From positions 97,711 to 161,710 of the forward strand of contig CAYOXX010000002.1 of assembly GCA_964408025.1 (NCBI GenBank): a stretch of DNA of 64,000 bases, in the 5' to 3' direction. Below are positions 9,298-45,911 of the stretch, piece after piece. The notes under the pieces are model-generated. The model was not told the origin of the DNA, did no database searches, and saw nothing but the letters and a program-made list of their open reading frames with translations. The first letter of the stretch is position 1. Every line of letters begins with the position of its first letter. Position numbers and translations under genes: made by a program. The DNA is from an uncultured Acidobacteriota bacterium (GTDB lineage Bacteria > Acidobacteriota > DATKUA01).

Positions 9298-10140
9298 ATG
9301 TGTCCCGTGATCCTTAATAGACCGCTCAGTTTCGCAAGCACGCTGCCTCTCACTCTCGCATTGTTACTCGCGCAGACAGCGGCATTTCCCCCGCCGGCCG
9401 GTGCTCAGGAGGCGGAAAGCCCCGTGGAGGAGATCACCAACTCCGTGGGCATGGTCCTCAGGCTGATACCTGCCGGCACGTTCATGATGGGCTCCGTTTC
9501 CGCCTACTCTGACATGGTGGAGTGGCCGGTTCACGAGGTGACGATCTCGCGACCGTTCTACATCGGCGTCTACGAGGTGACGCAGGAGGAATACGAGAGG
9601 GTGACGGGAACCAACCCCTCCTACTTCAGCGGCCCCAGGCGGCCGGTCGAAAGGGTCTCCTGGGAGGACGCCGTCGAGTTCTGCGAGAGACTCTCCGAAA
9701 TGGAGGGGGAAACTTACCGGCTGCCCACGGAGGCGGAGTGGGAGTACGCCTGCCGCGCCGGCACCACCACCGACTACTACTGGGGCGACGAGTTCGACGG
9801 GGACTACGCCTGGTACGAGAGCAACTGCGACGAGCAGACCCACGATGTGGGCCAGAAGCTGCCCAACCCCTGGGGCCTCTACGACATGTCGGGTAACGTC
9901 TGGGAGCACTGCTCCGACTGGGCCAGCCAGCGCTACTACCTGGTCTCGGAGTCGACCGATCCCCAGGGTCCCTACCGCGCCAGGTTCCGCGTCGCGCGCG
10001 GCGGCTCGTGGTACTACGACCGCTGGGTCGCTCGCTCACCGGCCCGCAACGGCTACATGCCGGGGCTGCGCATCCACTTCCTCGGCTTCCGCGTCGTCAG
10101 GGAGATCGAGGTGCCGATACGCCTCAACATCTTCCCCTAA
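9298..10140 (+). CDS. Formylglycine-generating enzyme (SUMF1/FGE-sulfatase) family protein, secreted. Start trimmed to MCPVILN...
   Basis: FGE-domain hallmarks (RVTGTNPSYF, RGGSW, WEWC-type Cys region). The track's first start is at 9199. Confidence 0.65.
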   Translation: MCPVILNRPLSFASTLPLTLALLLAQTAAFPPPAGAQEAESPVEEITNSVGMVLRLIPAGTFMMGSVSAYSDMVEWPVHEVTISRPFYIGVYEVTQEEYERVTGTNPSYFSGPRRPVERVSWEDAVEFCERLSEMEGETYRLPTEAEWEYACRAGTTTDYYWGDEFDGDYAWYESNCDEQTHDVGQKLPNPWGLYDMSGNVWEHCSDWASQRYYLVSESTDPQGPYRARFRVARGGSWYYDRWVARSPARNGYMPGLRIHFLGFRVVREIEVPIRLNIFP

Positions 10141-10147
10141 TCTCGAG

Positions 10148-10888
10148 CTAGCGCCGCAGGGGCGTCGTGACCTCCTCGAAGTCCGCGGGAACCTCGTAGA
10201 AGCCGGGCTCGACCTCGACGACGCGGATCAGCTCGACGGTCTGCTCGATCTCGTCACTGATGCTGCCCATGCTGATCGAGGTGGAGGTCCTGATCGGGTA
10301 TCCCTCCATCGCCCTCAGCTCGCGCAGGACACTCTGGTCCAGGAACGGGTTCTGCTCGAGGCCGACGGTCGACATCAGCCGCATAAAGACGTCCAGATCG
10401 AGCTCCGCCTCGGGGCTCATCCAGTAGTCGATGGTTATCTGCAGCTGCACGAAGTCGTCGCCGCGGGTCATGCTGCCGCGCCCGTGGAAGCGCAGCAGGC
10501 GGCAGGAGTAACCCGAGATCGCCGCCTCTTCGGCGCTCCGCTCGACGCGCCAGCTCACCTGCATCCGCTGTCGCATCATCGCCGCGGCGCGCTGGAAGTC
10601 GCTGCGCACTTGGCTCAGCGGGATGACGTAGTACTGGCGCTCCTCCCTGTCGATGGTGATCAGGCGGGAGTTGACGAGGTCGGTGATGTGCACCATCTGT
10701 TGGCCCGGCTCCTCGATCCGGATCGCCTGCTCGGCGATCCACATCCTGGTGACGCCGTTCTCCTCTCCGTCCTGGCTGGATTCACCGGAGTGGCGGCTCG
10801 ACTGCTCGATGTAGATGTCGGCCGCGGCCGGGGCCGCCGCCAGAACCGCCAGTGCCAGTGCGGCCAGCATGATTTGCGCAGTTCTCAT
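10148..10888 (-). CDS. Secreted hypothetical protein
   Basis: Signal peptide MRTAQIMLAALALAVLAAAPAAA. No family assigned. Confidence 0.45.
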   Translation of the reverse strand: MRTAQIMLAALALAVLAAAPAAADIYIEQSSRHSGESSQDGEENGVTRMWIAEQAIRIEEPGQQMVHITDLVNSRLITIDREERQYYVIPLSQVRSDFQRAAAMMRQRMQVSWRVERSAEEAAISGYSCRLLRFHGRGSMTRGDDFVQLQITIDYWMSPEAELDLDVFMRLMSTVGLEQNPFLDQSVLRELRAMEGYPIRTSTSISMGSISDEIEQTVELIRVVEVEPGFYEVPADFEEVTTPLRR

Positions 10889-16297: not shown

Positions 16298-16521
16298 ACA
16301 TAGCCCAGTTCGAAGTGCAGAAAAGTGGATAAGCGAGGGTTCTGCAGCGTATAGAGCCCTTAGGCACTTACATCGCCCTCAAAGGATCAGGGCAGATAGG
16401 GAGAATACTCCACTAAATTCTTCGAGAGCAGAAAAAGGACATCTCTTCATCTCTGTGGTGGCCGATGTAATATAAAGTGTCTCGATTCAGGAATGGTACC
16501 CTGCCATCCCACCCCGTTCCG

Positions 16522-16590
16522 CTGCCCCGTGACAGGGGCAGCTTCGCTCCTAGATTGATAATGCCATAAGGGATCGCTTTATGGGCAGGT
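16522..16590 (+). repeat. Copy X of a dispersed intergenic element (ctgccccgtgacaggggcag cttcgctcctagattgataa...). A related TTTATGGGTGGGG motif sits at 16696-16714
   Basis: Aligns with the copies at 18965-19065 and 27718-27814. Confidence 0.5.
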
Positions 16591-16924
16591 TGCGAGAGGA
16601 GAATACCTCTTCTCTGTAGAGCATCTGAGTGGGGTGGGCAATTTCTTAAAAGATTCTTGTCCGCTTTCGATACTAGCAGAGTTTAGTTAGGTGTGTCGCA
16701 TTTATGGGTGGGGATTCAGTATCAGCAATCCTTCTGAGCCTGCCGGAAACCTAGGGATCATTGACATGGCAATTGAGCTAACAGCACAAGTTCTATCATC
16801 CTATACAGTGGCTAGCGTTAACTAAGCCATGCCAAAACTATGAAAGGAGGTCAAGGAACGGAGGCTTAAAGTAACTCTTATGGAATCTAAGATCCAATTG
16901 GTGTGCTGGAGAAAGGAGATGCAA

Positions 16925-18772
16925 ATGAAAAAGCTACTATTTGTCAGTTTCTCACTATCACTATTAGCCTGTTGTTTCGTAATCCCGATTTCAATAGCTC
17001 AGGAGGCGGAATGGGTTGATGTTAGCACACTAGGCCCTTCAGTTCGTGCAACACCCGCAATGGTCTATGACGAAGAAAATAATGTAGGAGTACTTTTTGG
17101 TGGGGGGGCTAACATAGGTGGGATTCATAATGATTATGGTGATACTTGGATATGGGATAGTAGTACTAGAACATGGACTGAGGTTACACCAACAGATCCA
17201 GAATCATCACCTTCCAAACGTAGAGTAGCTGGAATGGCTTACTATAGTAATGGAAAAGCGATTCTTTTTGGTGGAATTACCGGCACTGGTGGAACTACCG
17301 TCATTCACTATGATACTTGGATATGGGATAGTAGTACTAGAACATGGAATGATGTTACTCCAGAGGACGTTGATGATAGAGTAGCAAATGGCACATGGCC
17401 TGCTAAACGTGGTTTAACTAAATTAGCTTATGATAGTGCTAGAGATAGAGTAGTACTTTTTGGAGGATGGGATGGATATAACTATTTTGGTGATACATGG
17501 GAATGGGATGATGACAATAGAATATGGATAGATGTAACTCCTTCTGGCGATTCTCCATCTGGGAGATATAGCCATGATATGGCCTATGATGGTGTTAATG
17601 GAATTGTCCTCTTTGGTGGAAATGACCGGGTGGTACGTGGTGATACTTGGATATGGGATGGTACTAATTGGCAAGAAGTCACTCCTGAAATAGGACCATC
17701 ACCTTCTAGGCGTGAGTCGCCTGCAATGGCTTATGACAGCACGAGCAACAGAGTGATCCTCTTTGGGGGACTGCATTATGATCCAAAAGAGTTCAAAGAC
17801 GACACTTGGGAATGGGACGGTAATACGAGAACATGGACTGATATCAGCACACCAGGACCAGATGCCCGCCTATATCATGCGATGGCCTATGATAGCGAAA
17901 ATAGTGTGATGGTTCTTTTTGGAGGAGTATATGACCCATTGGTTTTTTTAGATGACACATGGGAATACGGCCCTGTTTGTATAGAAAACGAAATAACCGC
18001 CACGGATCCGGACGGCAACAGTAACTATTGTTCATCAATTCAAGAGGCTGTCGATTTAGTCGACGGTGAAGGCTGGGAGATTACCGTTGGATCTGGCGAG
18101 TATGATGAATACGTCCTGATCCGTGGGAAAGTAAACCTCGCTATCAGAACATCATGCGCTGCTGAAGTAAAAGGCTTTATGCTCCAAAAATGCAACAACA
18201 TCACAATTGACGGCTTCACAATTGATGCAGAGGGCTCAGGTGCTAACGGCGTCACGCTGATGGGCGGCAATAACGATAATAGCGACGTCACCATCACTAA
18301 CTGCGATATCCACGGAGCTGGCAACAGCTACAGCGGCATCAAAGCGGCGCGGGGCAATCCCAACACAACAATCATTGGTAACCACATCCATCACAATGGC
18401 CGCAACGGGATAGTATTTATCGATGCCGCAGGTGGGCCGCACTTCATTACAAACAACGTCATCGAAGCAAATGGTTGGAATGGATTGAAAGTCGCCCGGC
18501 AACACGAGATCACTCTGACCGGTAACACGATCACAGCCAATGGCACAAGATCAGGTACTACTGGAGGCCGCTATGGAGTTCTCCGCGAGCGAACTACCGG
18601 GACAGGCTGGCCGGAAGGGATCACGCTCATCAACAACGTAATAACTGATAACAACGGGACGGTCCAGACAGGAAAGAGCTCAATTGATCTCGGAAACTAC
18701 GACCAGATGCTGGATGAGACAGACAGCGGCAACACTACAACCTCTGGAGACGAAGGACCTGGCGTGAGCTAG
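16925..18772 (+). CDS. Secreted Kelch-repeat beta-propeller protein fused to a right-handed parallel beta-helix (pectate-lyase-like) domain. Very AT-rich
   Basis: Repeated motifs GDTWIWD and LFGG (Kelch) in the N-terminal half. NxxITxN/GNxI beta-helix repeats in the C-terminal half. Shine-Dalgarno AAAGGAG lies 6 nt before the ATG at 16925. Confidence 0.65.
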   Translation: MKKLLFVSFSLSLLACCFVIPISIAQEAEWVDVSTLGPSVRATPAMVYDEENNVGVLFGGGANIGGIHNDYGDTWIWDSSTRTWTEVTPTDPESSPSKRRVAGMAYYSNGKAILFGGITGTGGTTVIHYDTWIWDSSTRTWNDVTPEDVDDRVANGTWPAKRGLTKLAYDSARDRVVLFGGWDGYNYFGDTWEWDDDNRIWIDVTPSGDSPSGRYSHDMAYDGVNGIVLFGGNDRVVRGDTWIWDGTNWQEVTPEIGPSPSRRESPAMAYDSTSNRVILFGGLHYDPKEFKDDTWEWDGNTRTWTDISTPGPDARLYHAMAYDSENSVMVLFGGVYDPLVFLDDTWEYGPVCIENEITATDPDGNSNYCSSIQEAVDLVDGEGWEITVGSGEYDEYVLIRGKVNLAIRTSCAAEVKGFMLQKCNNITIDGFTIDAEGSGANGVTLMGGNNDNSDVTITNCDIHGAGNSYSGIKAARGNPNTTIIGNHIHHNGRNGIVFIDAAGGPHFITNNVIEANGWNGLKVARQHEITLTGNTITANGTRSGTTGGRYGVLRERTTGTGWPEGITLINNVITDNNGTVQTGKSSIDLGNYDQMLDETDSGNTTTSGDEGPGVS

Positions 18773-18799
18773 TACATCCCTTCAGTGCGAAAATATATT

Positions 18800-18831
18800 G
18801 AGGCCGCCTGAAAAACGGCGGCCTCGTTTTA
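18800..18831 (+). terminator. Rho-independent terminator (gaggccgcc, loop tgaaaaac, ggcggcctc, then GTTTT)
   Basis: Perfect 9-bp stem followed by a T-run, downstream of the stop at 18772. Confidence 0.6.
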
Positions 18832-18964
18832 ACTTCCTGATGATATTGACCAAAGGAACATGTCTTTCTTACCAAACTCTCATCTCTACAATAACTAGCG
18901 CATCCTCTGAGAACCGCTTTCTCGGTAAAGGGAACATTGTGACCATCCGTCCTTTTACAATTAG

Positions 18965-19065
18965 CTGCCCCACGACACCAGCAGCTACGCCCACAGGCTG
19001 ATAGCTGCAGTAGAGTTTGTAAGGGCGGATAACCGCGGAGGGGTGAGATTTGCGGTGGGGGGCAG
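18965..19065 (+). repeat. Copy Z of a roughly 100-bp intergenic element with 7-bp terminal inverted repeats (CTGCCCC ... GGGGCAG)
   Basis: Shares a ctgcccc head, an atagctg core and a 22-bp exact block ggggtgagatttgcggtgggg with copy Y. Confidence 0.55.
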
Positions 19066-19228
19066 AATGTTTGTTTGGTCCTGTGCTTTGGTTGTGTGAG
19101 CCTCTTCCGTCAGGGTTGGATGGAGTCTTCAGCTATGGTTTCAATTGCTTTCAAAAGCCGGGTTAGCTAGTCTGGGAACGGTAAAGAAATCAATCCCATG
19201 TCAAATTCCTAACACGAGGGGAAAAGAA

Positions 19229-20593
19229 ATGAATTTCCGCGACCTCTCTTTCGTTGATGCTCCCATGATCAAGACACAGCCCCCCGGGCCTGTATCCAGG
19301 GAATATCTTGATTCCCAGTCCACCCATGAAGGTTCGGCTGTCTCGTATCCGCGAGGGATGCCGATGGCGCTCCGCAGAGCGAAAGGTGCAACCGTTGAGG
19401 ATGTCGACGGAAATCTCTTCATCGATTTCTTTAGTGGTGCCGGGGTCATAAACGTGGGCCACTCGAATCCGGATGTGATAGAGGCGGCTCACCGACAGAT
19501 CGATGAAATCACCCACGCCCTTGACTTCCCCACCCCTGCCAGGAAATCGCTGGTGGAGAAGCTCCTATCACTTCTGCCGGCCCCTCTGAACAAAGTCTTT
19601 TTCGGAGGGCCGACCGGATCTGACGCCGTGGAAGCGGCGATGAAGCTGGCGAAATATTACACGCGGCGCATCCCGATGATCTCCTTCGAGGGCGCCTATC
19701 ACGGCATGACTGCCGGCGCGCTCTCTCTAACCAGTGGTGACTGCTTTAGGGAAGATTTTCTTCCAGGCCTTCCAGAGGTTCACTTCGTTCCCTACCCCTA
19801 CTGCTACCGCTGCGCATTCGGGATGGAACCTGAAACGTGCGACCTGCACTGCGCCAAACACATCGACCACATTCTGGAAGACCCTCATTCCGGCGTGGCG
19901 AGGCCGGCAGCGGTTATTTTCGAAGCGATTCAAGGGGAGGGTGGTTCCATTATCCCGCCGGATCAGTTCGCACGGGAACTCAGGGAGATATGCGATCGAC
20001 ACGATCTCCTTTTGATAGTAGACGAAATCCAGGCCGGATTCTGCCGCACGGGCAGGACCTTTGCCTTTGAACACTACGGGATCGTGCCCGATATCGTCAC
20101 CATGAGCAAAGCATTGGGAGGCGCCGGCTTTCCGATATCCTGCATTGCATACAGAGAGAAGCTGGACAAATGGCCGGCCGGCAAGCACATCGGCACCTTC
20201 CGCGGCAACGTTGTGGCCTACGCAGCCGGAAGCGCGGCTATCGATTTCATGATTAAGAACAGCCTGGCAGAGTACGCTGCCGAAATGGGCGAATCGATGC
20301 TCTCCTGGCTAAAGGAGATAGAAAAGGATTCCAGAATCGTAGGGGAAGCTCGCGGAAAAGGGCTTATGCTTGGCCTTGAACTGGTGAAGGACAAGGAAAC
20401 AAAAGAGCCGGCCCCCGAACTGGCAAAGAAGGTAAGAACTATCTGTCACCGCCGCGGCCTGCTGATCGAGGTCGGTGGACACTATTTCAACGTTGCGCGC
20501 TTCCTCCCGCCCCTAGTCATCACTGAAAACCTGGCAAAGAAGGGGGTCGAGATAATAGCGGATTCGCTTAGGGAGGCTGAGAAATCGTTTTAG
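19229..20593 (+). CDS. Class III PLP-dependent aminotransferase (GabT / beta-alanine-pyruvate transaminase-like). Start trimmed to MNFRDLS
   Basis: Full-length AT-III fold motifs (DEIQAGFCRTGR, TMSKALGG). Confidence 0.8.
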   Translation: MNFRDLSFVDAPMIKTQPPGPVSREYLDSQSTHEGSAVSYPRGMPMALRRAKGATVEDVDGNLFIDFFSGAGVINVGHSNPDVIEAAHRQIDEITHALDFPTPARKSLVEKLLSLLPAPLNKVFFGGPTGSDAVEAAMKLAKYYTRRIPMISFEGAYHGMTAGALSLTSGDCFREDFLPGLPEVHFVPYPYCYRCAFGMEPETCDLHCAKHIDHILEDPHSGVARPAAVIFEAIQGEGGSIIPPDQFARELREICDRHDLLLIVDEIQAGFCRTGRTFAFEHYGIVPDIVTMSKALGGAGFPISCIAYREKLDKWPAGKHIGTFRGNVVAYAAGSAAIDFMIKNSLAEYAAEMGESMLSWLKEIEKDSRIVGEARGKGLMLGLELVKDKETKEPAPELAKKVRTICHRRGLLIEVGGHYFNVARFLPPLVITENLAKKGVEIIADSLREAEKSF

Positions 20594-20619
20594 ACCAATA
20601 ATGTATTTGTTGTGAGTAG

Positions 20620-22017
20620 GTGATGTTGAAACCGAAGACAACCCTTATCAGGGGCGGAACAATAGTTATCGGGCAGACTGTTTCTCAACAAGATCTTCTA
20701 ATTCAAGGGGAAAGGATTTCAGCTTTAGGTGACATGTCTGACCGCATGGCCGATGTCGAGGTAGACGCCACCGGCCTGCTAGTGCTGCCGGGGGCCGTCG
20801 ACACCCACGTCCACTTCAACGACGAATTCATGAACACGGTCAGCGTGCACGACTACTACACCGGCACCCTGGCTGCCGCTTACGGAGGCGTCACCAGCAT
20901 AGTTGACTTCTCCAACCAGGCTCCCGGCGAGCCTCTTTTAAGTACTGTCAAGCAGAAGAACAAAGAGGCCGCAGGCAACGCCCTCGTCGATTGGGGTGTG
21001 CATCCGGTTATTACGGAGCCGACGCCCCAAACACTGGCAGAAATTCCCTCGGTGGTCGAAGCGGGGGCGCCAACCATAAAGTGCTACATGACCTATCGCG
21101 ACGAGGGCCTCATGATCGAAGACGAGGATCTGAAGCGCATTCTATTTGTGCTAAAAGAGGCCGGCGGAATGCTGATGCTGCACGCGGAGGATGACGACAC
21201 AATAGGAATAAACGTACACAGGATGATCAAGGAGGGCCTCACCAAACCAATCTATCACGCCAGAAGCAGACCGCCCGAGACAGAGGTCAAGGCAATCCGC
21301 CGTTGCCTCAAGATGGTAAGAGAAACAGGAGGCAGACTGTTCATCGTCCACATGGCTACCGACGAAGGTGTTGACATTGTACGTGAGGCCCGGCTCGAAG
21401 GCCTTGATCTCTTTGCTGAGACGTGTACTCACTATCTAGTCTTCACCGATAAAATGTTGGAGCGCGATGACGGAATCAAGTGGATCTGCTCTCCTCCCCT
21501 TCGAAGCCAAGCAATACAAGATCGGCTCTGGGAAAGCATAAAGAACAGCAACATTTCGATGGTGACCTCCGACGACGCCGCCTACTCCTGGGAGGCCAAA
21601 CTTCATGGCGCCGACCGCTTTGACAAATGCCCAAACGGCATCCCGGGCATCGAACCCCGTCTAAGCATTCTCTACTCCGAAGGAGTGGCCGGAGGACGGA
21701 TCTCCTTGCCGCGGTTTATTGAGTTGATTTCTACAGCGCCGGCTACACTATTTGGCCTGACGCCGCAAAAAGGCAGCCTCAATCCCGGAGCCGATGCCGA
21801 TATCGTACTCTTCGATCCCGACGCGCAATGGGTCATGAGCCGGGAAACGCTGCACATGGCCAGTGACTGGTCCGCCTATGACGACATCGAAGTCACGGGT
21901 AAAATTAAGAAGGTGTTTTCTCGGGGGGAGCTGATTATCGACGAAGACCGCTGCCTGGCGGAAAGGGGGAGGGGCCGTTATCTGCACCGCAAACTCGACC
22001 TGTCTGCGGGCGCGTAA
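20620..22017 (+). CDS. Hydantoinase / dihydropyrimidinase (cyclic amidohydrolase)
   Basis: Metal-binding DTHVH motif and full-length similarity to D-hydantoinase/DHPase. Confidence 0.8.
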   Translation: MMLKPKTTLIRGGTIVIGQTVSQQDLLIQGERISALGDMSDRMADVEVDATGLLVLPGAVDTHVHFNDEFMNTVSVHDYYTGTLAAAYGGVTSIVDFSNQAPGEPLLSTVKQKNKEAAGNALVDWGVHPVITEPTPQTLAEIPSVVEAGAPTIKCYMTYRDEGLMIEDEDLKRILFVLKEAGGMLMLHAEDDDTIGINVHRMIKEGLTKPIYHARSRPPETEVKAIRRCLKMVRETGGRLFIVHMATDEGVDIVREARLEGLDLFAETCTHYLVFTDKMLERDDGIKWICSPPLRSQAIQDRLWESIKNSNISMVTSDDAAYSWEAKLHGADRFDKCPNGIPGIEPRLSILYSEGVAGGRISLPRFIELISTAPATLFGLTPQKGSLNPGADADIVLFDPDAQWVMSRETLHMASDWSAYDDIEVTGKIKKVFSRGELIIDEDRCLAERGRGRYLHRKLDLSAGA

Positions 22018-22057
22018 TAAACCTCGCGAGCGGGCTAAGTTCATCCAGGAGACTTAA

Positions 22058-23443
22058 ATGAACGGCGAAGGAAAGAAAGAATTCCCTATATTTTCAGGCG
22101 CCTCTCCAGAGCAGGTGGCTGAGGATCTAGAAACACTTGTTGATTTTCCGGATCAGGGGCTCCCGCTTGAAGAACTGTCCAAATTGATAGACGAACGGCT
22201 TCTTCCTCATCTGATGCGCTATGACCAGCCCGGATTCCAGTCGATGTTTAACTCGTTCCCGGAAGAGGGAGCGGAATTCGGGGCTAAGATTGCCCTCGCC
22301 TACAATCAGGGCGTAACCAACTGGCAGGTATCGCCGGGGGGAGCGATGCTGGAAGAGCTATGCTGCAGGGCTATCTGCAGGCTCTTCGGATTCGGACCTG
22401 ATTCCGATGCCACCTTCATGTACTGCGGCACCTATGCGAATCAGCTAGCCTTGTACCTGGCGCTCCATCGGAAAGCGGAGGGTGAGGGCTTCGACTTGGC
22501 CGAGAAGGGCCTGTGGGGGTTCCCCGACCCTCCCCGCTTGAAGGTTCTGACCTCTTGCGATGCGCACTTTTCCGTCAAACATGCCGTTCGCATGTTGGGG
22601 CTGGGCGAACGGAACCTGGTAACGCTGGCCGTGGATGGAAATCGGCGCATAGATGTCGAGCTGATCGAGGAATACATTAAGAAAACTCGAGAACTCGGTG
22701 ACCTCTTTTGCCTGGTCGCCACGGCAGGCACCACTTGTGCCGGCTCCGTGGATCCGATCCTCCCGATTGCAAAAATCTGCGACCAGCACAACATCTGGCT
22801 TCACGTGGACGGGGCTTACGGCCTGGCTTACAGCCTGGTTCCCGAATGGAAGCCGTTGTTCGCCGGAATCGAGCTTGCCGATTCGGTCTCCTGGGATCCG
22901 CACAAGCAACTAGGCATCCCCATACCAAATTCCCTGCTCTTCGTCCGCCGCAGGGAAGACTTCGGCAGGATGGCCTTGCACAGTAACTATTTCAATATAG
23001 CGGAAACCATCGAGCCAAACCCGGGATTGAAATCGCCCCCTTCCACCCGCCCACTTGCTGCCCTGCCTCTAGTGACCTCTTTGCGTTATCAGGGCATGGC
23101 CAAGGTGATTGAGAGGCTGCGTGCCCCGCTTGCCGCGATTAAAGCGACGGTTGAACATCTTGAAAAGGAGCCCGACATCGAACTCATGCACCGGCCCGAT
23201 ACGGGAATCTTCTGTTTTCGTGTAATCCCCGGAGGCGTGGAAGAGGACAGGTTGGATCAGTTGCAACGATATCTCTATGATACGATCATGGCTGAGGGGA
23301 AGCGGTCTATATCAGTAGCTGAATTTGATGGCAAGACTGTATTGAGGCTGCTGGCGATCTCACCATTTGTGACAAGCCGGGACTTGCTGGAAACCGTTTC
23401 TGAAGTGCGGGCTCTGGCACGTGTATATATAGCTTCCTATTGA
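22058..23443 (+). CDS. PLP-dependent group II amino-acid decarboxylase (Asp/Glu/Tyr decarboxylase family)
   Basis: Conserved SWDPHKQL region containing the PLP-binding Lys. Confidence 0.7.
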   Translation: MNGEGKKEFPIFSGASPEQVAEDLETLVDFPDQGLPLEELSKLIDERLLPHLMRYDQPGFQSMFNSFPEEGAEFGAKIALAYNQGVTNWQVSPGGAMLEELCCRAICRLFGFGPDSDATFMYCGTYANQLALYLALHRKAEGEGFDLAEKGLWGFPDPPRLKVLTSCDAHFSVKHAVRMLGLGERNLVTLAVDGNRRIDVELIEEYIKKTRELGDLFCLVATAGTTCAGSVDPILPIAKICDQHNIWLHVDGAYGLAYSLVPEWKPLFAGIELADSVSWDPHKQLGIPIPNSLLFVRRREDFGRMALHSNYFNIAETIEPNPGLKSPPSTRPLAALPLVTSLRYQGMAKVIERLRAPLAAIKATVEHLEKEPDIELMHRPDTGIFCFRVIPGGVEEDRLDQLQRYLYDTIMAEGKRSISVAEFDGKTVLRLLAISPFVTSRDLLETVSEVRALARVYIASY

Positions 23444-23517
23444 GTAAAGTACAAACCTTGTGACCACGACTCTCGCTTCTCATACTCAATAGATAGAGCG
23501 CGGGAGGTACTTGGCGC

Positions 23518-24927
23518 TTGCTGGAAAGTGTCCTGGACGGCGCTTCATACGTAAGCGGGGCCCTCTGGGGGCCCTGGACGCTGATTTTTATCGCTGCCGT
23601 TTCCGTTTTCCTGACGGCAAGATCCGGCTTCTTCCAGATAAGAAAACCCGGACTAATCTTGAGAGAAACTCTAGGGAAAATCTTTGAGCGGGGGGAATCC
23701 GCTAACAAGGGAAGAATGTCACCGTTCCAGGCGACGTCAACAGCTCTGGCCAGCACCGTTGGAATGGGAAACATCGCCGGGGTCGCCACAGCCATCTCCA
23801 TCGGAGGGCCGGGATCCATATTCTGGATGTGGCTCCTGGCTCTACTCGGGATGATGTCAAAAACCGCGGAGATTACACTCGCCGTCCACTACAGGGATGT
23901 CGACAAGGAAGGGCGTTTCCGTGGCGGACCCATGTATTACATCAAGAAAGGTTTGGGCTGGAAGCCACTGGCCATCGTATTCAGCTCCGGAGTACTCATA
24001 AATTCGTTGTTGAGTGCTTCCCTGCTCCAACCGCACACAGTCGGCAGGGCTCTCCTGTCCAGCTATAATTTCGATCCCTACATAGTCACCGGCCTGATGG
24101 CTGTCATCACTGCGATCGTAGTTTTCGGTGGAGTCAAAAGAATCGGCCAATTCTGCGAGAAGCTCGTGCCCCTCATGTCCCTTCTGTATATTTTGGGCGC
24201 GGTAACGATATTTGTCGTAAATTACGCAAAAATGCCAGAGGTGTTCGGTTCAATATTCATGTACGCTTTTGCGCCGGCCCCGGCTGCCGGCGGGGTGGCG
24301 GGAGTGGCGGTTGCTACGGCCATCCGAGAAGGTATGGCAAAGGGGATGCTGTCCAACGAAGCCGGCTGCGGAACCGCCCCGATGGTTCACGCGACAGCAG
24401 ATACGAAGCACCCCTTTCAGCAGGGCATGTGGGGAACATTTGAAGTCTTTGTAGATACGATCGTTATCTGCACCATAACTTCCTTCGTCGTCCTCTCGAC
24501 CGGAGTATTATCCAGCGGGGAATCCGGTATAGAGTTGGTTATACTTGCTTTCTCATCTGTGTTCCCTGAGGAAGTTGCGGGCACGATGCTCTCCTCCTGC
24601 ATCCTGACTTTCTGCCTGACGACCCAAATAGGTTTTTTTATTTACTATGAAACGGCATTGGTTAATGTATTCGGTAAAAAAGCTGTGAGATATCTGAAAT
24701 GGCTTTACCTGATTCCCGGAATACTATTTGCGGGATTTGCCGACGTCGACAGGCTATGGGTTTTCGCAAACATCGCTGTAGGCGTCTGCGCCATTCCGAA
24801 CCTAGTTGCTGTTCTGGCCCTGAGCGGGGTATTCTTTAAGTTAATGAAGGACTATTTGAACGACACGAACAAATACGCGACAAGGATTGTCGATTCTTCG
24901 AAGGAATATGTGCAAATAGCACAGTAA
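23518..24927 (+). CDS. Alanine/glycine:cation symporter (AGCS family)
   Basis: Polytopic membrane protein with AGCS signature regions. Confidence 0.8.
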   Translation: MLESVLDGASYVSGALWGPWTLIFIAAVSVFLTARSGFFQIRKPGLILRETLGKIFERGESANKGRMSPFQATSTALASTVGMGNIAGVATAISIGGPGSIFWMWLLALLGMMSKTAEITLAVHYRDVDKEGRFRGGPMYYIKKGLGWKPLAIVFSSGVLINSLLSASLLQPHTVGRALLSSYNFDPYIVTGLMAVITAIVVFGGVKRIGQFCEKLVPLMSLLYILGAVTIFVVNYAKMPEVFGSIFMYAFAPAPAAGGVAGVAVATAIREGMAKGMLSNEAGCGTAPMVHATADTKHPFQQGMWGTFEVFVDTIVICTITSFVVLSTGVLSSGESGIELVILAFSSVFPEEVAGTMLSSCILTFCLTTQIGFFIYYETALVNVFGKKAVRYLKWLYLIPGILFAGFADVDRLWVFANIAVGVCAIPNLVAVLALSGVFFKLMKDYLNDTNKYATRIVDSSKEYVQIAQ

Positions 24928-24970
24928 ATAATGTTTCCCATTGGAAGACATGGAAAGGATTTGTTAGTCT

Positions 24971-25438
24971 ATGGATAACAATAGAATGAGCAAAAAAATC
25001 GACAGGATCTCATTTCAACTCGGCATGATCAATTGCTTTGCAGAGATGGTGGCCTGTGGCGTGAAGAAACTTGCTATAAGTCCGCCGATCTCTCCCGAGG
25101 ATTATGAAGTAATTGGAAAGCTATCCAATAACATAGTAAAAGGGTTCGGCATACAGTCCTATTTGGAAAGATCCCTGCTGATAACTGATCTTCAGCCTGA
25201 AGAATTCACTGCAGATAAGTGGTCCATCCTCTACTACGAAAGTGAGGAGATCCTTGAGGAATATCTGGTCTTAAAGGAGAAAAAGCGGCAGCTTGAACGG
25301 TCGGGCCGGTACAATAGGGAGGCCGGAAGAGAGATGGCCAGGGCTTTCATGAGGCTTTTAAGCTATCCCGAGGACAAAACAGAAGAAAAGCTCTCCAAGG
25401 AGACCCCGTCATCCCCCTACATGCTTACTGACGATTAG
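24971..25438 (+). CDS. Hypothetical cytoplasmic protein
   Basis: 155-aa ORF with no recognised domain. It sits within the operon. Confidence 0.4.
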   Translation: MDNNRMSKKIDRISFQLGMINCFAEMVACGVKKLAISPPISPEDYEVIGKLSNNIVKGFGIQSYLERSLLITDLQPEEFTADKWSILYYESEEILEEYLVLKEKKRQLERSGRYNREAGREMARAFMRLLSYPEDKTEEKLSKETPSSPYMLTDD

Positions 25439-25442
25439 GAGT

Positions 25443-26144
25443 TTGGTTATGAGGATATTGATCATCAATCCCAACAGCGACGAAGAGATGACTAAGGCAA
25501 TTCAAAAAGCCGCCGACAATTTCGCCGGCGGGGATTTCGAAGCCGTATGCAAACCTACACCGGGAGCGCCCGCATTCATTGAAACCTACGAGGATCAAAT
25601 CAAGGCCGCGCCCGAAATGATTCGGCTAGTGAGGGAAAACGAAAAGAAGTTTAATGCCTTCGTGGTCGCCTGCCACTGCGACCCTAATCTCGATGCAATC
25701 AAGGAGATCACCAAGAGGCCTGTGGTCGGTATTGGCGAGGCATCGATGAAGATTGCCTCCATGCTGGGGCACCGCTTTTCAGTTGTTTCAAGCAGCAAGC
25801 ATTCCATTCCCAATAAAGAGGCCCTGGCAAGCAAATACGATCTTCAGGACATGCTTGCTTCGGTCAGAGCTCCCGCGGATGAAATGTCTGAATGCGACGA
25901 AGAAGAAAAGATCATGCGGGCCGCGCAATCGGCCATCGAGGAGGATATGGCGGAAGTGATTGTGCTGGGCTGCGCCGGGATGGCGGGACTGGATAAGCAA
26001 CTTCAGAAGAAACTCGGCGTTCCTGTTCTGGATGGAGTCGCTTGCGCCCTGATAATCGCGTCCGGCCTGGTTAAATATGGAGTCTCAACCAGCAATATCC
26101 GTAGGTACAACACTGAATACAAAATCCCTCCTGTGGGCGGTTGA
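25443..26144 (+). CDS. Asp/Glu/hydantoin racemase superfamily protein (hydantoin racemase-like)
   Basis: Two catalytic-position Cys residues (ACHC at about residue 77, GCAG at about 178), matching HyuE-type racemases. Confidence 0.7.
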   Translation: MVMRILIINPNSDEEMTKAIQKAADNFAGGDFEAVCKPTPGAPAFIETYEDQIKAAPEMIRLVRENEKKFNAFVVACHCDPNLDAIKEITKRPVVGIGEASMKIASMLGHRFSVVSSSKHSIPNKEALASKYDLQDMLASVRAPADEMSECDEEEKIMRAAQSAIEEDMAEVIVLGCAGMAGLDKQLQKKLGVPVLDGVACALIIASGLVKYGVSTSNIRRYNTEYKIPPVGG

Positions 26145-26207
26145 AACTATCGGTTTTTTCTCGAAGTGCGGGATCGTGAGCGCAACATTCATGGGAGATA
26201 GCTCGCT

Positions 26208-27401
26208 ATGAGAGAAAAGATAACTTCTATCGCAACGTCAATTCACGACGATCTCATAAACTTACTCCGCGACATGATCGCCATCCCCTCCTACAGCGGT
26301 AAGGAAGGAGCCGTTATCGAGCGAATGAAGCAAGAGATGCAGAACCTCGGTTACGACCAGGTTTGGGTCGACCCACTGGGGAATCTCTTGGGACGGATCG
26401 GTTCGGGAAACAAAGTGATCGCTATTGACGGCCACTGCGATACCGTCGGTGTCGGCAATCCGGAAACCTGGAAAGTCGATCCCTTTAAGGGCGATTATCG
26501 CGATGGAGTCATCTACGGACGGGGTGCATGCGACCAGAAAAGCGGCCTGGCATCGGCAATTTACGCCGGCAAAATCCTGAAAGAGGTCGGCATGCCCGAT
26601 TGCATTTCGGTTTTCGTCGTTGCCACGGTGCTCGAAGAGGACTTCGAAGGCCTCTGCTGGCAATACATCATTAATGAAGGCAGGATCGTGCCCGAGGCGG
26701 TCCTGATCACCGAGCCGACAGGCCTGGAGATCAAGATCGGTCAGCGCGGACGGATGGAAATTGAGGTGAAGACTGAGGGAATATCCTGCCACGGCTCCGC
26801 TCCCGAGCGCGGGAAAAATGCGATCTACTTAATCGCTCCAGTAATCCAGGAAATCGAGCGCCTTAACGAACGCCTGGAAAGCAAATCCGTGCTGGGAAAG
26901 GGTACCGTTACGGTAACCGATATCCGCTCCACCGCGCCTTCTCTTTGTGCCGTTCCCGACAGTGCCACCATTCACCTGGACAGGCGTCTGTCCGCCGGAG
27001 AGAAGCTGGAGACCGCCGTCAAGGAAGTGCAAGACCTTATTTCAGTTAAGACAGCCAAAGCAAAAATTTCGGTGCCTGAATATGAAATCAAGAGCTACAC
27101 CGGTCTCGCTTACCCAGCCAGAGCTTACTACCCTATGTGGTTGATGGACGAATCGGACCCCCTAATTCACACGGCAGCAGAGGCGCATAAAAAAATGTTC
27201 GGCGAAGAAGCAGACATTGGTGTTTGGGGGTTCTCTACTAACGGCGTGGTGACGAAGGGCGTTTATGATATCCCGACCATCGGATTCGGTCCGGGGAAAG
27301 AGGAACATGCCCACACGCCCGATGACCAGGTCCGCACGGACGATCTGTTAGCAGCTATGAACTTCTACGCTGCGTTCGTCCTGGAATGGGGAGAAGGATA
27401 G
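26208..27401 (+). CDS. M20 family amidohydrolase (N-carbamoyl-amino acid / beta-ureidopropionase / YgeY-like)
   Basis: M20 metal ligand motifs (IDGHCDTV, ACDQKSG). Confidence 0.75.
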   Translation: MREKITSIATSIHDDLINLLRDMIAIPSYSGKEGAVIERMKQEMQNLGYDQVWVDPLGNLLGRIGSGNKVIAIDGHCDTVGVGNPETWKVDPFKGDYRDGVIYGRGACDQKSGLASAIYAGKILKEVGMPDCISVFVVATVLEEDFEGLCWQYIINEGRIVPEAVLITEPTGLEIKIGQRGRMEIEVKTEGISCHGSAPERGKNAIYLIAPVIQEIERLNERLESKSVLGKGTVTVTDIRSTAPSLCAVPDSATIHLDRRLSAGEKLETAVKEVQDLISVKTAKAKISVPEYEIKSYTGLAYPARAYYPMWLMDESDPLIHTAAEAHKKMFGEEADIGVWGFSTNGVVTKGVYDIPTIGFGPGKEEHAHTPDDQVRTDDLLAAMNFYAAFVLEWGEG

Positions 27402-27717
27402 TACCATTTAAGGAAGAGCGGTTGAAAAAGTGTCCCACGAGCAGCCGCCAGAGCAAAACGCTGGCATCTCGTCCGGCGACGCCGTCTACCGTGCGATTCT
27501 ATCTTTCCAGAGACATCGGATTGAAAAAGAAAGACCGCCTAATAGTCAGCGCCCAGCTGCGGGCCGTGAAGCACCGTAAGAAGAGGACTATCAGGCTAAT
27601 GACAGCATTGCCCGAAGACGTTCACCCAGCCGCTTCGGACCCTAAAATGTAGCTACCATCTACACTCCACAGAGATTGCTTGTGTTTACCGGCTTGCCCT
27701 GGAGCTTCAAGGCTCCA

Positions 27718-27814
27718 CTGCCCCGGGACAAGAGCAACTTCGCTCTAAGATCAATAGCTGTAAAAGCGCCTTTAAAAGCGGAAAGAGTTAAAGGGGTGAG
27801 ATTTGCGGTGGGGG
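27718..27814 (+). repeat. Copy Y of the roughly 100-bp intergenic element
   Basis: Aligned with copies Z and X. Contains the exact 22-mer ggggtgagatttgcggtgggg. Confidence 0.55.
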
Positions 27815-28121
27815 CAAAGCCATTTAATGAGGTCTGGAGCAGGTGAGTATCCAGATGCTTCCTACTTCCAAATCGGCCAACCTTAAGAGGTGGTTGAGCC
27901 TCACGGCGGGAGTGAGTTCATCAACACGCGGCTAGCGTCAGATGCAGGGAGACAAAAGCCCCGTGTAGGAGCGGGAAACCTGTAAAATCCGCCTGCAGAG
28001 CGGAAAAAACCGGAAGGGGCAATCGGTTGAAACGAGGAGCTAAAACGATCCTGGAGAGCTCGAAATGCCCACTCAAATGATCAATAAATTAATGGCCTCT
28101 GATAAGCCGAATCAGAAGAGC

Positions 28122-28301: not shown

Positions 28302-28635
28302 GGCACCAACCTCCTCCCTTAGAGTGTTTGCATAATAACATAAGAACACCAAAGGTCAAATTAAATAAACTTTATCTCCGAGCCTGATCCCGACCCCAGA
28401 AAACGAGTCCAGTTTTAATGCTAGTAAATTGTCGTCTACGACACTTGTTCTCCTCGATTTTCATTGGTATCTCAGGAACCTTAGAATATGCAATGCCGCG
28501 GTTCTGGAGTGGTAACCATTCCTCCCCCGCTCCGCTGCCTTGTGACATGAGCATCTCCGCTCCAAGAGCTGAAAGCTGCATTAACAAGAGACTATTGCCC
28601 TATCTGATCACAGAGGAAAGCTGAGCCTGACCTCG

Positions 28636-29215: not shown

Positions 29216-29737
29216 TCAGGTTAAGCCCCCCCCCTGCTCGACAGACCCGAGGTACATCCCGCTGACATAACTGCCGTCTGCGTTGCAGCGGGTCAACTTG
29301 AAAATCATCTTGCCGGAATCCGTATTGAACGGTATTTTCAGCAGCTTTCCTCCCTTCGCAAACCGCGGAAGCCGTTTAATCGGCTCGTTCTGCTCCTCTT
29401 CGCTCTGAATGATCAGCTTGTTGCCGGCCCAGCTGCCGTCGTAGAGGGGCCAAGTCCTGAAGCCCAAGACCGACTGCGGCGGCGCAAACTGGTCCTCGAC
29501 ATACCCGGGCACAACCGCGCATCCGTAGACGACGCCGCCCTGCTCGACGAAATGCATATAGATCGGGAGATTGAAATCACCCTCCGGATCAGGTTCGAGC
29601 TCCACCACATCAACGGAATAGAAGCCGAGATACTGTGTGCCATCGAGTGTAACGGCTGGTGCCTTATCTTCGTTCGCATAGGCTGAGATTGGCGAAGCGA
29701 ACATCAATAACGCTAAGCTTAACAGCAATTTACGCAT
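29216..29737 (-). CDS. Secreted hypothetical protein (signal peptide MRKLLLSLALLMFASPISAYA)
   Basis: ORF track. A poly-G tract of about 8-9 nt (the C-run at about 29226-29234) lies 5 codons before the stop. Confidence 0.5.
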   Translation of the reverse strand: MRKLLLSLALLMFASPISAYANEDKAPAVTLDGTQYLGFYSVDVVELEPDPEGDFNLPIYMHFVEQGGVVYGCAVVPGYVEDQFAPPQSVLGFRTWPLYDGSWAGNKLIIQSEEEQNEPIKRLPRFAKGGKLLKIPFNTDSGKMIFKLTRCNADGSYVSGMYLGSVEQGGGLT

Positions 29738-30023
29738 GATTATCCCTCGTTCGGATGCTCAGTTATTACAACCTGTTTCTTAGTTTACCCTGAGCTCGGT
29801 TAATAATTAATTCCTTCGCAGACATTATCATGAGATGAAAAGTACAGCAAATGGTCACGTAATGCGACGCAGCTATCGCTTTGCGGTGGGGCCAGAACGG
29901 AGCGTTCTTAGTGATTAAATAGTCCTAATGCAACAAAGTTCAAGTGACACCAAGAGGTCGGCAGACTCCGCAGGTTGTTAGAATAGCGATTAATTTTCGT
30001 TGTTGCTGTGCCGGCCGACTCCG

Positions 30024-38989: not shown

Positions 38990-40804
38990 ATGAAATCAGT
39001 TAAGCCACAGTCGGTAAAGGTGCCGGAGGAACGTGAAAGTACGGGCGATTCCTACCCGTTGGATAAGCCGTCAAAGCTCGCAGACATACGCCGTTTTACG
39101 CAGGAAGTAGCCCTGGCGACCGCCGCCGTCACGCGAATCGATTTCAGTATCATCGACGAGAATCTCGTACGGGTTTCGGGCTCAGGCAACTACATCGACG
39201 AGGTGGATTTCATCTTACCGGCGCATTCCATTTCCGACCAGATATTGAAGACCGGCCAAGTGTATGTCCTTGAACATCCAAGGGAAGATCCCAGATGTAA
39301 GAAATGTAGCTACATGGGCCACTGCAAGGAGCTGGCCGAAATAAGTTATCCGGTGGTGCTCAACGGCACCCCCATCGGGAATATGGTTCTCGTCGCCTTC
39401 ACCAAGGAGCAGCGGAAACTCCTGCTGGAGCACCGGAACGATTACATTGAGTTCCTTAGCAAGATAGCGAACCTGCTGGTTAACAAGATCGAGTCCAAGG
39501 AAAAGGCGAGGCAAGTATCTCTGCTCAAGCAGCAACTCGAAACCCTAATCAACAAGATAGACCAGGGAATCGTCTACGTTGACGAGAATGGGAAGGTCCA
39601 GTTCTTTAACACCATAGCGAAACAATACCTACTCGAGGAGCTCAACTACGGTCTTTTGATGGAGTACTTCTTGCCCGAGATTTCCTGGCCGGTTACCGAC
39701 CAGATAGACAAGTTAGTCAGCCGAGATAACGAGACCTACTCAGTCAGCGTCAAACCACTGGAAGGCGTTGGCGCCTTGGTCGAAATTCAGCTCATAACCA
39801 CGATTCAACGCAAAGAGCATGATATCCGCCGCCGGATGGCAACCAAAACGCACGTGGCCGAGGCCACGTTCGACGACCTCGTTGGCAACCATCCGGAATT
39901 CCTTAAGACCGTCGAGATAGCGCGCAAATACAGCGTGGTCGACGCGACGGTACTGATCACGGCGGAGACGGGAACGGGAAAGGAGCTATTCGCACAAAGC
40001 TTGCACAACATGAGCCCCCGGCGCAACGGTCCGTTTGTGGCGGTCAATTGCGCCGCCCTGCCCGAAAGCCTGCTCGAGAGCGAGTTGTTCGGCTATGTGG
40101 GCGGCGCCTTCACCGGCGCCAAGCGGAGCGGTAAGGTGGGGCTCTTCGAGCAAGCCCACCGCGGCACGATCTTCCTCGACGAGATCGCCGAGATGCCCTT
40201 CCGGCTCCAGTCCAGCCTTCTACGCGTTCTGCAGCACAAGGAGGTGATGCGCATCGGCGACGACAAGCTGATACCTGTGGACGTCAGAATAATCACGGCA
40301 ACCAACAAGGATCTCCGGGCGCTGGTCGATAAGGAGCAGTTTCGCGAAGACCTTTATTACCGCCTCAATATCCTGAGGCTCGAAATACCGCCGCTGCGCA
40401 GACGCCGCGAGGATATTCCCCTTCTCGTTCAGCACTTCGCCATTCAGGTCTGCCGGACGTACAAGAGACCTCCGATATCTTTCTCGAAGGAGTGCGGGGA
40501 GAGGCTCAGCAACCACCACTGGCCTGGTAACATCAGAGAGCTCTATAATGTGATCCAGCGCGCCGTCCTCCTCGCCGTCGAGCCGATTATCAATGTCAAT
40601 GTGATTGACGGAATCCTCGAACATACAGGAGATGAGGGCAACGTCCAGAACCAACGGTTCGACCTGGATTTAACCGGATCCTTCAAGGACATCCAGCGAC
40701 AGATCATCCAGCAGCTATTCGAAGGTAGCAAAAGCGAGGACGAGGTAGCGCGTATCCTGGGGATTTCGAAAACCACGTTGTGGCGGCGGATGAATGCAAA
40801 ATGA
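38990..40804 (+). CDS. Sigma-54-dependent transcriptional activator with GAF and PAS sensor domains (no receiver domain), AAA+ GAFTGA motif and a Fis-type HTH
   Basis: ETGTGKE Walker A, GAFTGA, ESELFGY and a C-terminal HTH. A Cys/His cluster CKKCSYMGHC lies in the GAF domain. Confidence 0.85.
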   Translation: MKSVKPQSVKVPEERESTGDSYPLDKPSKLADIRRFTQEVALATAAVTRIDFSIIDENLVRVSGSGNYIDEVDFILPAHSISDQILKTGQVYVLEHPREDPRCKKCSYMGHCKELAEISYPVVLNGTPIGNMVLVAFTKEQRKLLLEHRNDYIEFLSKIANLLVNKIESKEKARQVSLLKQQLETLINKIDQGIVYVDENGKVQFFNTIAKQYLLEELNYGLLMEYFLPEISWPVTDQIDKLVSRDNETYSVSVKPLEGVGALVEIQLITTIQRKEHDIRRRMATKTHVAEATFDDLVGNHPEFLKTVEIARKYSVVDATVLITAETGTGKELFAQSLHNMSPRRNGPFVAVNCAALPESLLESELFGYVGGAFTGAKRSGKVGLFEQAHRGTIFLDEIAEMPFRLQSSLLRVLQHKEVMRIGDDKLIPVDVRIITATNKDLRALVDKEQFREDLYYRLNILRLEIPPLRRRREDIPLLVQHFAIQVCRTYKRPPISFSKECGERLSNHHWPGNIRELYNVIQRAVLLAVEPIINVNVIDGILEHTGDEGNVQNQRFDLDLTGSFKDIQRQIIQQLFEGSKSEDEVARILGISKTTLWRRMNAK

Positions 40805-45585: not shown

Positions 45586-45752
45586 AGGCCGCCACAGCGG
45601 CCGACGTGACATGGGAGCACAGGCGCTGTGCCGTCGGTATGGAACCCAAACCAGCCTTTCCTGCGAGTGACATGTGGAGCTGGACTACCGCACCGAAGGG
45701 CGGCTACGCGTAATGGGACCGCCAGCCTTGCGGTGGCGTAGAGGGTGGGTTT
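45586..45752. repeat. Diverged duplicate of the segment immediately 3' of tRNA-Ser. It comprises a hairpin aggccgccacagcggccg, the block catgggagcacaggcgctgtgc, and a degenerate copy of the tRNA-Ser 3' end tggcgtagagggtgggtttc
   Basis: Compared with 46729-46840; 18 of 20 nt of the tRNA 3' end match. Confidence 0.4.
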
Positions 45753-45911
45753 CTTTCTCGGAGTGGATCAGGAAATAACCCGAGAAAATACTCTACTTGG
45801 CTAAGCATGTTCGGCCATGTACAATCGGCCTGTTCATTAAGGATCGGCTAGAGCTACAGATCTCGGATTGTCCGGGGCGGCTGATTGCCAATGCGTTTGG
45901 GAGAGATGAAA

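Follow-up and report, generated by a model that had tools for sequence, protein, structure and literature searches.

The window, which is the whole 64-kb stretch of DNA that was analyzed, contains a genuine, small family of noncoding repeats of approximately 110 nt, with four copies in the window and two in other metagenome contigs. We give roughly even chances to the reading that these units are slowly decaying mobile-DNA debris, lineage restricted, linked to a rare IS1182/IS5-like insertion sequence (IS), and most likely functionless now. The unit may have been carried with, or as part of, the IS or its deletion derivative, or spread by segmental copying of IS-adjacent DNA, and its copies would later have eroded through microhomology-mediated deletion and point mutation. 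The units sit in long, relic-filled spacers of what appears to be a horizontally acquired low-GC island (GC content of 0.44 to 0.56, compared with 0.62 to 0.70 in the flanks, which carry housekeeping genes), and the apparent partitioning of the island into modules could reflect debris surviving only between genes.

Copies were read from the window and from approximately 60 kb of related contigs. A profile search of the 64 kb recovered two full-length units (Z and Y) and two 5' halves (X and V), and none beyond this 12-kb cluster (Table 1); all four are on the forward strand, confirming the common orientation reported in the preliminary description. Exact-pattern scans of genome and metagenome collections contributed one additional true copy. 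The unit has discrete ends, running from CTCCGCTGCCCC to TTTGCGGTGGGGSGCAGA, and the flanks of the copies are mutually unrelated with the exception of those of Y and U. Approximately 45 nt of extra homology 5' of the unit (16469 to 16512 in X and 28485 to 28525 in V) is shared by these two copies only (z of 6). Identity is 63% between Z and Y (over 110 nt) and 73% between Z and W. Conserved blocks in the profile include CCCCGYGACA, GCAGCTTCGCTC, TTGATAGCTG, and TTTGCGGTGGGG. The block RRTTTGCGGTGGGG, 14 bases that are invariant in four copies otherwise only 62 to 75% identical, hints at some constraint or gene conversion, which speaks against an origin as debris.

Table 1. Repeat copies and associated features (window positions unless a contig is named)
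Feature	Position	Strand	Extent or content	Match
Copy X	16513-16573	+	First ~60 nt of unit only	Profile E 2.3e-14
Copy Z	18957-19071	+	Full-length	Profile E 1.7e-31
Copy Y	27707-27817	+	Full-length; meets the IS relic at its 3' end, TGCGGTGGGG	Profile E 4.2e-29
Copy V (newly added)	28526-28586	+	5' ~60 nt of unit	blastn matches; profile E 1.7e-13
Copy W	Contig L013, 927-811		Outside the window	
Copy U	Contig L021, 9742-9856		Outside the window	
DinB_2 block	27644-27709	+	Homologous to the 3' end of the DinB_2 gene beside U	blastn 80% over 66 nt, E 6.5e-10, to L021 9078-9143
IS1182/IS5-like right-end relic	27804-28099	+	Last ~41 transposase codons, 3' UTR, right inverted repeat	
GAGACTATTGCCCTA	28588-28602	+	Directly after the V truncation point	11/15 to the IS left inverted repeat GAGACYGTTGATTTA
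"Half-site" TTTATGGGTGGGG	16701-16713	+	String present; family membership unsupported	No profile match
"Half-site" TTTGCGGTGGGG	29880-29891	+	String present; not significant	Profile E 5.4 (29878-29894); pairwise z 1.9-3.6

What had been described from the sequence was borne out in part, and several details were wrong. The order of lipase gene, X, Kelch gene, Z, operon, Y, and small genes is correct, with the operon spanning 8.4 kb and seven or eight genes, and co-oriented intergenic repeats of approximately 110 nt do separate the modules of the low-GC island. The shared head CTGCCCCNNGACA is exact at 16522, 18965, and 27718, on the forward strand in each case; Z starts with CTGCCCC and ends with GGGGCAG; and Z and Y are direct repeats on either side of the operon. 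Two elements attributed to X, Z, and Y alike do not extend to X: the exact shared 21-mer GGGGTGAGATTTGCGGTGGGG is present in Z (19040) and Y (27793) and absent from X, and at the ATAGCTG core X, which is homologous over its first ~60 nt only, reads GATAATGCC. The strings called half-sites exist, but as family members they are indistinguishable from chance; the one at 29880 could be all that is left of the 3' end of a unit, or it could match by chance. CTGCCCC and GGGGCAG had been taken for 7-bp terminal inverted repeats, but they are not the termini of the unit because homology between copies continues past both, for approximately 6 to 8 nt 5' of CTGCCCC and 3 nt 3' of GCAG. In U, the 5' arm reads CCACCCC while the 3' arm is unchanged, so that the inverted repeat is broken with no compensating change.

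Copy Y is fused to a clear relic of an IS1182/IS5-like element. Where an intact element would have a whole transposase gene and both IS ends, this one retains only about the last 41 codons, and profile searches detected no IS left end or body anywhere in the window. The transposase tail (27804 to 27927) reads ICGGGKAI, two in-frame stops, GLEQVSIQMLPTSKSANLKRWLSLTAGVSSSTRG, and a final stop, and the right inverted repeat (TAAATTAATGGCCTC, 28085 to 28099) matches the IS consensus at 12 of 15 positions. The relic is 57.5% identical over 40 amino acids to the IS in contig L020 (tblastx E value of 5e-9), matches an IS-tail profile (nhmmer E value of 3.6e-16), and is 74% identical over 134 nt to contig L023, where the alignment of the 3' UTR and right inverted repeat stops exactly at the IS terminus (z of 5.4, p<0.001). 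At the junction there is a 10-nt G-rich microhomology between TGCGGTGGGG in the unit and TGCGGnGGnGG (the "WCGGG" codons) in the transposase gene. The related transposases in other contigs combine DUF772, DDE_Tnp_1, and DDE_Tnp_1_6 (proteins P0018 to P0028 carry PF01609 and PF13751); among NCBIfam models, IS1182 and IS5_4 fit them best, but the IS scores under the cut-offs for both IS1182 and IS5. Its ends, GAGACYGTTGATTT...AAATCAACRGTCTC, are found in five copies. The family is rare, with 11 clusters among 5.8e9 proteins and no relatives in PLSDB plasmids, and includes the internal-deletion derivatives P0026 (L024) and P0027 (L021).

The units outside the window lie near the same IS. The L021 locus consists of a DinB_2 gene, U, a 5' fragment of a kinase gene, and an IS tail (10046 to 10323) that is co-oriented with U and 190 nt from it. 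Y is colinear with L021 9745 to 9852, and compared with this more intact locus the Y locus shows two deletions, of approximately 600 and 195 nt; the DinB_2 block, Y, and the IS relic together show that the Y locus is a U-like locus that was deleted twice. W is 750 nt from a co-oriented relic of the IS (L013 1988 to 1678), and the segment common to L013 and the 75%-identical contig L019 has the 5' edge of W and the terminus of the IS relic as its exact limits. Since Y and U are not independent, the association with the IS is based on two independent contexts, which counts against the reading as IS debris.

The IS left end (left inverted repeat, promoter, and start-codon region) was considered as a candidate origin of the unit and found no support: a profile of five left ends matches no unit. 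Smith-Waterman comparisons of units with IS left ends gave z values of 0.3 to 3.1, compared with 4 to 7.6 for true left ends among themselves, and in a chain test of units against the IS, 1 of 24 comparisons reached a z of 4.0 (W with L020a). Similarity between the unit and any part of the IS thus lacks statistical support, and no IS inverted repeat flanks X, Z, or U; both observations speak against debris of this IS. The string GAGACTATTGCCCTA beside V is a weak hint of a trace of the IS left inverted repeat, its match being within the chance range because twenty matches in the window are equally good.

Strain single nucleotide polymorphisms (SNPs) have a density of 1.72% in the units, whereas coding sequences have 0.54% and intergenic DNA outside the units 0.41% (Fisher p of 0.01 to 0.015), making the units approximately 3 to 4 times richer in SNPs than the remaining DNA. 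No coding signal was found in the units. The SNP excess, the truncation of X and V, and the lack of covariation, fold stability, and coding signal give no sign of constraint, in keeping with debris.

A regulatory role is unlikely, though it deserves some weight. The units might be portable promoters, operators, or 5' leaders that drive the downstream gene (Kelch, the aminotransferase operon, or the L021 kinase), with Y and V vestigial. X, Z, and U lie approximately 148 to 350 nt before co-oriented starts and 3' of the preceding gene's terminator, a placement that is also compatible with a regulatory role and to that extent counts against debris; Z, for example, is 130 nt beyond the Kelch intrinsic terminator (18799 to 18826) and approximately 160 nt before the aminotransferase start (19229). 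The conserved blocks of the profile are in line with such a role, and X contains a sigma-70-like site matching at 9 of 12 positions (GTGACA-16-TAGATT). However, a shared sigma-70 promoter would have -35/-10 hexamers with 16- to 18-nt spacing at the same place in every copy, and a consensus scan (the consensus may not be that of the host) passed X only, gave no sigma-70-like site inside U or W, and listed none inside Z, Y, or V. The -10 position of the X site is not conserved (CAGGTT, CAGGCT, and AAGATC), and U does not fit the GG-N10-GC pattern of sigma-54. In addition, Y, V, and W have no co-oriented gene downstream, the distance to the start codon varies, the units are more polymorphic than other intergenic DNA, and no promoter or terminator consistent across the units was found. 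A structured cis-regulatory RNA or small RNA, raised in the preliminary description, is far less probable still. Z folds into a closed multistem shape (RNA z of -1.8 on the forward strand and -3.3 on the reverse strand), and both Z and W could form a GCAGCT...AGCTGC stem, but the folds of Y, W, and U are no more stable than those of shuffled sequences. Rfam scans of the window, L013, and L022 gave no match even at E<=10; the RNAalifold covariation terms of +1.0 and +1.6 were positive on both strands (four full copies, giving low power), a single compensatory pair being outnumbered by many broken ones; and no terminator was found after the unit, which is also high in SNPs.

Three readings treat the unit as a mobile or recombining element in its own right. 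The label of MITE/REP-like, proposed earlier, fits as repeat DNA in the broad sense; a genuine MITE with ends TGCCCC...GGGGCA, mobilized in trans by some transposase, is improbable. The unit is discrete and lies in unrelated flanks, Z and W have complementary ends of 7 to 8 bp of the TG...CA type, and homology to L019 breaks off at the 5' edge of W. These points are offset by the inverted repeats being neither conserved (U) nor terminal, by the absence of target-site duplications or flanking direct repeats at any copy, by folds of W, U, and Y that are no better than shuffles, and by only six copies having been found in the window, the related contigs, and the collection scans, which contributed a single one. 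No clean empty site can be defined for W, because L019, which lacks it, shares no downstream flank with L013. We regard as a long shot that the unit is an undescribed nonautonomous element, or a recombination or insertion substrate of the rare IS1182/IS5-like transposase or another recombinase, with RRTTTGCGGTGGGG as the recognition site and successive one-sided events bringing in the lipase, Kelch, and amino-acid modules in cassette-like fashion. Least credible are attC-like sites of an integrase-less cassette array (CALIN-like) or of another recombinase, to which the co-oriented repeats behind successive modules had invited comparison. attC sites carry conserved R'' (RYYYAAC) and R' (GTTRRRY) boxes with AAC/GTT triplets (PMC4889954); a regular-expression search for these boxes on both strands of the six copies and their flanks returned 0 candidates. 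attC sites further form imperfect palindromic single-strand hairpins, with R and L boxes paired and extrahelical bases, and have IntI nearby or at least form a same-strand cluster with spacings under 4 kb. Single-stranded DNA folds of W, U, and Y had z values of +0.85 to -0.80 relative to shuffles (Z, approximately -2), with only a 7-bp terminal pairing that is broken in U; no integrase, tyrosine recombinase, or other recombinase is annotated in the 64 kb; and successive window copies are 2.4, 8.75, and 0.8 kb apart. The modules have their own terminators, one is the entire operon, and two copies are truncated halves. Without conserved boxes, palindromic fold, or integrase, a canonical attC is essentially refuted. 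The suggested excision by recombination between Y and Z also found no support: the 18 contigs with the operon and the 3 with the lipase gene showed no structural variant, a look-up by operon protein being blind to deletion variants, and Y and Z share no identical stretch longer than 23 nt.

As the units are neither integron sites nor regulatory RNAs, the finding is a fairly ordinary one. If they are debris of the IS, this would be ordinary genome archaeology: eroding mobile-element remains pad an island that a high-GC, uncultivated bacterium acquired, and in one neat case a microhomology-mediated deletion has joined a repeat to the end of a transposase gene. The case also calls for caution, since intergenic repeats that are co-oriented and have short complementary ends may be mistaken for attC arrays or riboswitch families, and a striking "conserved 21-mer" can be a mere deletion junction. 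The unit would be relevant to gene-module assembly outside integrons only if it served as an active substrate for recombination or transposition.

Small dispersed intergenic repeats and MITEs include the Correia/NEMIS, RUP, and ERIC elements. The units resemble these in being approximately 110 nt long and intergenic, with unrelated flanks and, in some copies, short complementary ends, but differ in the lack of conserved terminal ends, target duplications, and a stable hairpin and in the very few copies found, two of them half units. With attC sites and CALIN arrays (Cury et al. 2016, PMC4889954), the likeness is in co-oriented repeats of approximately 60 to 140 nt 3' of successive gene modules; the units differ in having no R''/R' boxes, triplets, palindromic fold, or IntI, and the module sizes and separate terminators are atypical. 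IS5/IS1182-type elements also survive as solo ends and as derivatives with internal deletions; the ~110-nt units travel next to such relics, but they align significantly with neither the IS left end nor the body. The relic itself resembles IS5/IS1182-type elements (DDE_Tnp_1/DDE_Tnp_1_6) in its C-terminal ...CGGG..GLEKVxIQMLLAS.AANLKRWL, its 3' UTR, and its terminal inverted repeat, AAATCAACRGTCTC.

The repeat family centered on the ~110-nt intergenic unit is real, small, and lineage restricted. The three elements that the preliminary description had placed in the window, X, Z, and Y, are all present on the plus strand, with CTGCCCCNNGACA exact at 16522, 18965, and 27718. A longer exact word was said to be shared by all three; the exact 21-mer GGGGTGAGATTTGCGGTGGGG is found in Z and Y and is missing from X, which also lacks the ATAGCTG core attributed to it and is homologous to the other copies over its first ~60 nt only. 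Searching the elements by blastn against strain contigs of the same locus identified a fourth copy, V, which, as with X, is a 5' half of the unit, and ~45 nt of extra upstream homology is common to X and V. A profile made from all copies and run over the 64-kb window recovered Z, Y, X, and V with no further significant match. Two short strings proposed earlier as related half-sites are not significant as members of the family; the profile gave an E value of 5.4 at 29878-29894 and no match at 16701. A 173-aa gene at 29216-29737, considered as a DinB_2 paralogue that would account for the half-site at 29880, is unrelated.

Locations of the repeat copies, island genes, and copies of the associated insertion sequence (IS)
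Feature	Location	Strand	Profile E value
Alpha/beta-hydrolase gene	island	+	
Copy X	window 16513-16573	+	2.3e-14
Kelch/beta-helix gene	window 16925-18772	+	
Copy Z	window 18957-19071	+	1.7e-31
Operon: class-III aminotransferase, amidohydrolase, PLP decarboxylase, Na:Ala symporter, unknown protein, Asp/Glu/hydantoin racemase, M20 peptidase	island	+	
Copy Y	window 27707-27817	+	4.2e-29
Copy V	window 28526-28586	+	1.7e-13
Small genes after the plus-strand set	island	-	
IS copies	L020 9155-10435 and 11600-12690; L024; L025 9577-10453; L028 866-2166		

Pattern scans for more copies used CTGCCNNNNGACANNNGCANCTNCGCNCNNAG. Among species-representative genomes, the exact pattern gave one match only, a chance occurrence in coding DNA. 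Among metagenome contigs, the true copy W in L013 was recovered together with L012, which represents the locus of the window itself, and three matches due to chance. Three pattern scans of viral contigs returned nothing or chance matches, and PLSDB contained no match to the unit. W (L013 927-811) is 73% identical to Z; the transposase relic adjoining Y led to a further copy, the sixth, named U (L021 9742-9856; L022 has it too). W, U, Z, and Y have discrete ends in common, from ...CTCCGCTGCCCC to TTTGCGGTGGGGSGCAGA (about 108-115 nt), and their flanks are unrelated except in the Y-U pair. No orthologous locus was obtained for W: contig L019 is without W, and the downstream flank is not common to L019 and L013.

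The window copies lie within an island of low GC content (0.44-0.56; about 14-31 kb of the window), the flanks of which have a GC of 0.62-0.70 and carry the housekeeping genes ispH, aspS, efp, and gap. Intrinsic terminators close the hydrolase and Kelch genes, with X and Z situated past these terminators, and the island has intergenic spacers of unusual length (335-680 nt). About 18 metagenome contigs carry this locus at 99.5-100% identity, and no structural variants or excision products were found among them. The Kelch/beta-helix gene, which has internal ~170-nt repeats and was called at 615, 626, or 348 aa depending on the strain contig, may be variable or in decay. Past its 3' end, at 18799-18826, lies a strong intrinsic terminator that is bidirectional; a sub-threshold Rfam match to NsiR4 at 18801-18866 (22 bits versus a gathering score of 40) was taken as chance, produced by the terminator.

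Other repeats occur in the window. Its extreme start (3-317) consists of a tandem repeat (45-nt period, at least 5 copies), and imperfect 54-nt-period repeats are found at 55979-56463 within a minus-strand DUF4097 "toastrack" gene. The tRNA-Ser(GGA) gene (46818-46907, minus strand) has, 1.08 kb away at 45713-45753, a 41-nt partial copy of its 3' end and downstream hairpin; the copy is 73% identical and could be an att-type duplication of a small integrated remnant.

The translation 3' of Y reads ICGGGKAI, two stops, GLEQVSIQMLPTSKSANLKRWLSLTAGVSSSTRG, and a further stop. A profile search followed by a second search yielded P0018-P0020 and P0021-P0028, respectively, all of them short ORFs from the C-terminus of a DDE transposase (PF01609+PF13751) that end ...VKRWCGGGRARYWGLEKVSIQMLLASMAANLKRWL... 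and for which the best NCBIfam models are IS1182 and IS5_4. The IS delimited from contigs L020, L023, L024, L025, and L028 spans about 1.25 kb and has the ends GAGACYGTTGATTT...AAATCAACRGTCTC. Its alignment with window 27804-28099 starts at the CGGG codons, crosses the stop codon and 3' UTR, and reaches the right inverted repeat (tblastx, E 5e-9; nhmmer, E 3.6e-16), with 74% identity to L023 over 134 nt, a z of 5.4 for the terminal alignment, and a 12/15 match of the right inverted repeat to the consensus. ORF calls for the transposase, with domains DUF772 + DDE_Tnp_1 + DDE_Tnp_1_6, are invariably split or short, and it scores under the NCBIfam cut-offs for IS1182 and IS5_4. The family is rare, with only 11 protein clusters among 5.8e9 sequences and no transposase relative in PLSDB, and internal-deletion derivatives, such as P0026, are common.

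The contig carrying U is colinear with the window over the 3' end of a DinB_2 gene (L021 9078-9143 with window 27644-27709), the unit (9745-9852 with 27712-27819), and the IS tail (10049-10323 with 27807-28099); this makes the Y locus a U-like one minus about 600 nt and about 195 nt. Y meets the IS tail at the 10-mer TGCGGTGGGG, a sequence that corresponds to the conserved 3' block in the unit and to the WCGGG codons in the transposase. In L021, the tail instead joins, at GGCGGCGGCGG, the 17 opening codons of a kinase-like ORF. Each junction resembles a microhomology-mediated deletion. The ORF spanning the L021 junction, P0027 (10001-10468), is a chimera of 17 N-terminal codons of a Ser/Thr-kinase-like gene (GKTISHYMILEKLGGGG) and the last ~45 transposase codons, followed by the IS 3' UTR and right inverted repeat to 10323.

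W has a co-oriented relic of this IS 750 nt upstream of it in L013 (1988-1678), and the segment between the two is exactly the part of L013 in common with the 75%-identical L019. The unit thus adjoins a relic of this rare IS in both independent contexts, Y/U and W. Candidate IS-tail homology downstream of Z and W was not significant. Words common to the unit and the IS left end (GTTGATAG, GAGGGGTAAGG, and ATGAGG.TT.AA) raised the suspicion that the unit is that left end, comprising promoter, RBS, and first ~11 codons, in which case Y would be a classic internal-deletion derivative; comparison of the unit with five left ends by nhmmer profile, Smith-Waterman alignment, and chaining gave this idea no support. 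Similarity among the true left ends of the family is itself weak (z 4-7.6). An IRL-like string directly 3' of the truncation point of V, an IRR-like string 180 nt 3' of W, and 14 invariant bases in the unit (RRTTTGCGGTGGGG) are all weak hints within the chance range.

Among strains, the units contain 6 SNPs in 348 nt, compared with 66 in 12,132 nt of CDS and 9 in 2,211 nt of other intergenic DNA, an excess of 3-4 times over elsewhere (Fisher p 0.01-0.015) that argues against purifying selection. At least one unit SNP (16517 T>C, in X) shifts the copy towards the family consensus and could reflect gene conversion between copies. Three copies seemed to keep the reading frame APLPRD...GGVRFAVG open; a profile with this frame matched only the ORF call over Y, and codon-position and synonymous-change statistics were not significant (column permutation p 0.16 and 0.21). 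A portable promoter or leader is an unlikely explanation. X passes the promoter scan, and it alone does so, with no consistent sigma-70 promoter or terminator across the units. The GG-N10-GC motif of the 3' block, taken as a sigma-54 site, breaks down in U, and no sigma-54-type promoter was tied to the repeat units. Elsewhere in the window, a sigma-54-dependent activator gene adjoins a TonB-dependent receptor gene (38990-40804).

Among known mobile or structured elements, a true MITE is slightly less probable than a promoter, as the inverted repeats once described as terminal are internal to the unit and broken in U, and target duplications are absent. The proposal of a structured RNA is very improbable; covariation terms are positive, with many pairs broken, Y, W, and U fold no better than shuffles, and Rfam scans of the window, L013, and L022 returned nothing at the units at either gathering or E<=10 thresholds. 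Resemblance to an attC cassette array, judged by the criteria of PMC4889954, is the least credible of all, there being no R''/R' boxes, no hairpin, and no integrase in 64 kb. The best explanation, to which we give about an even chance, is that these repeats are neutral remnants of mobile DNA, linked to an IS1182/IS5-like element, within an acquired island.
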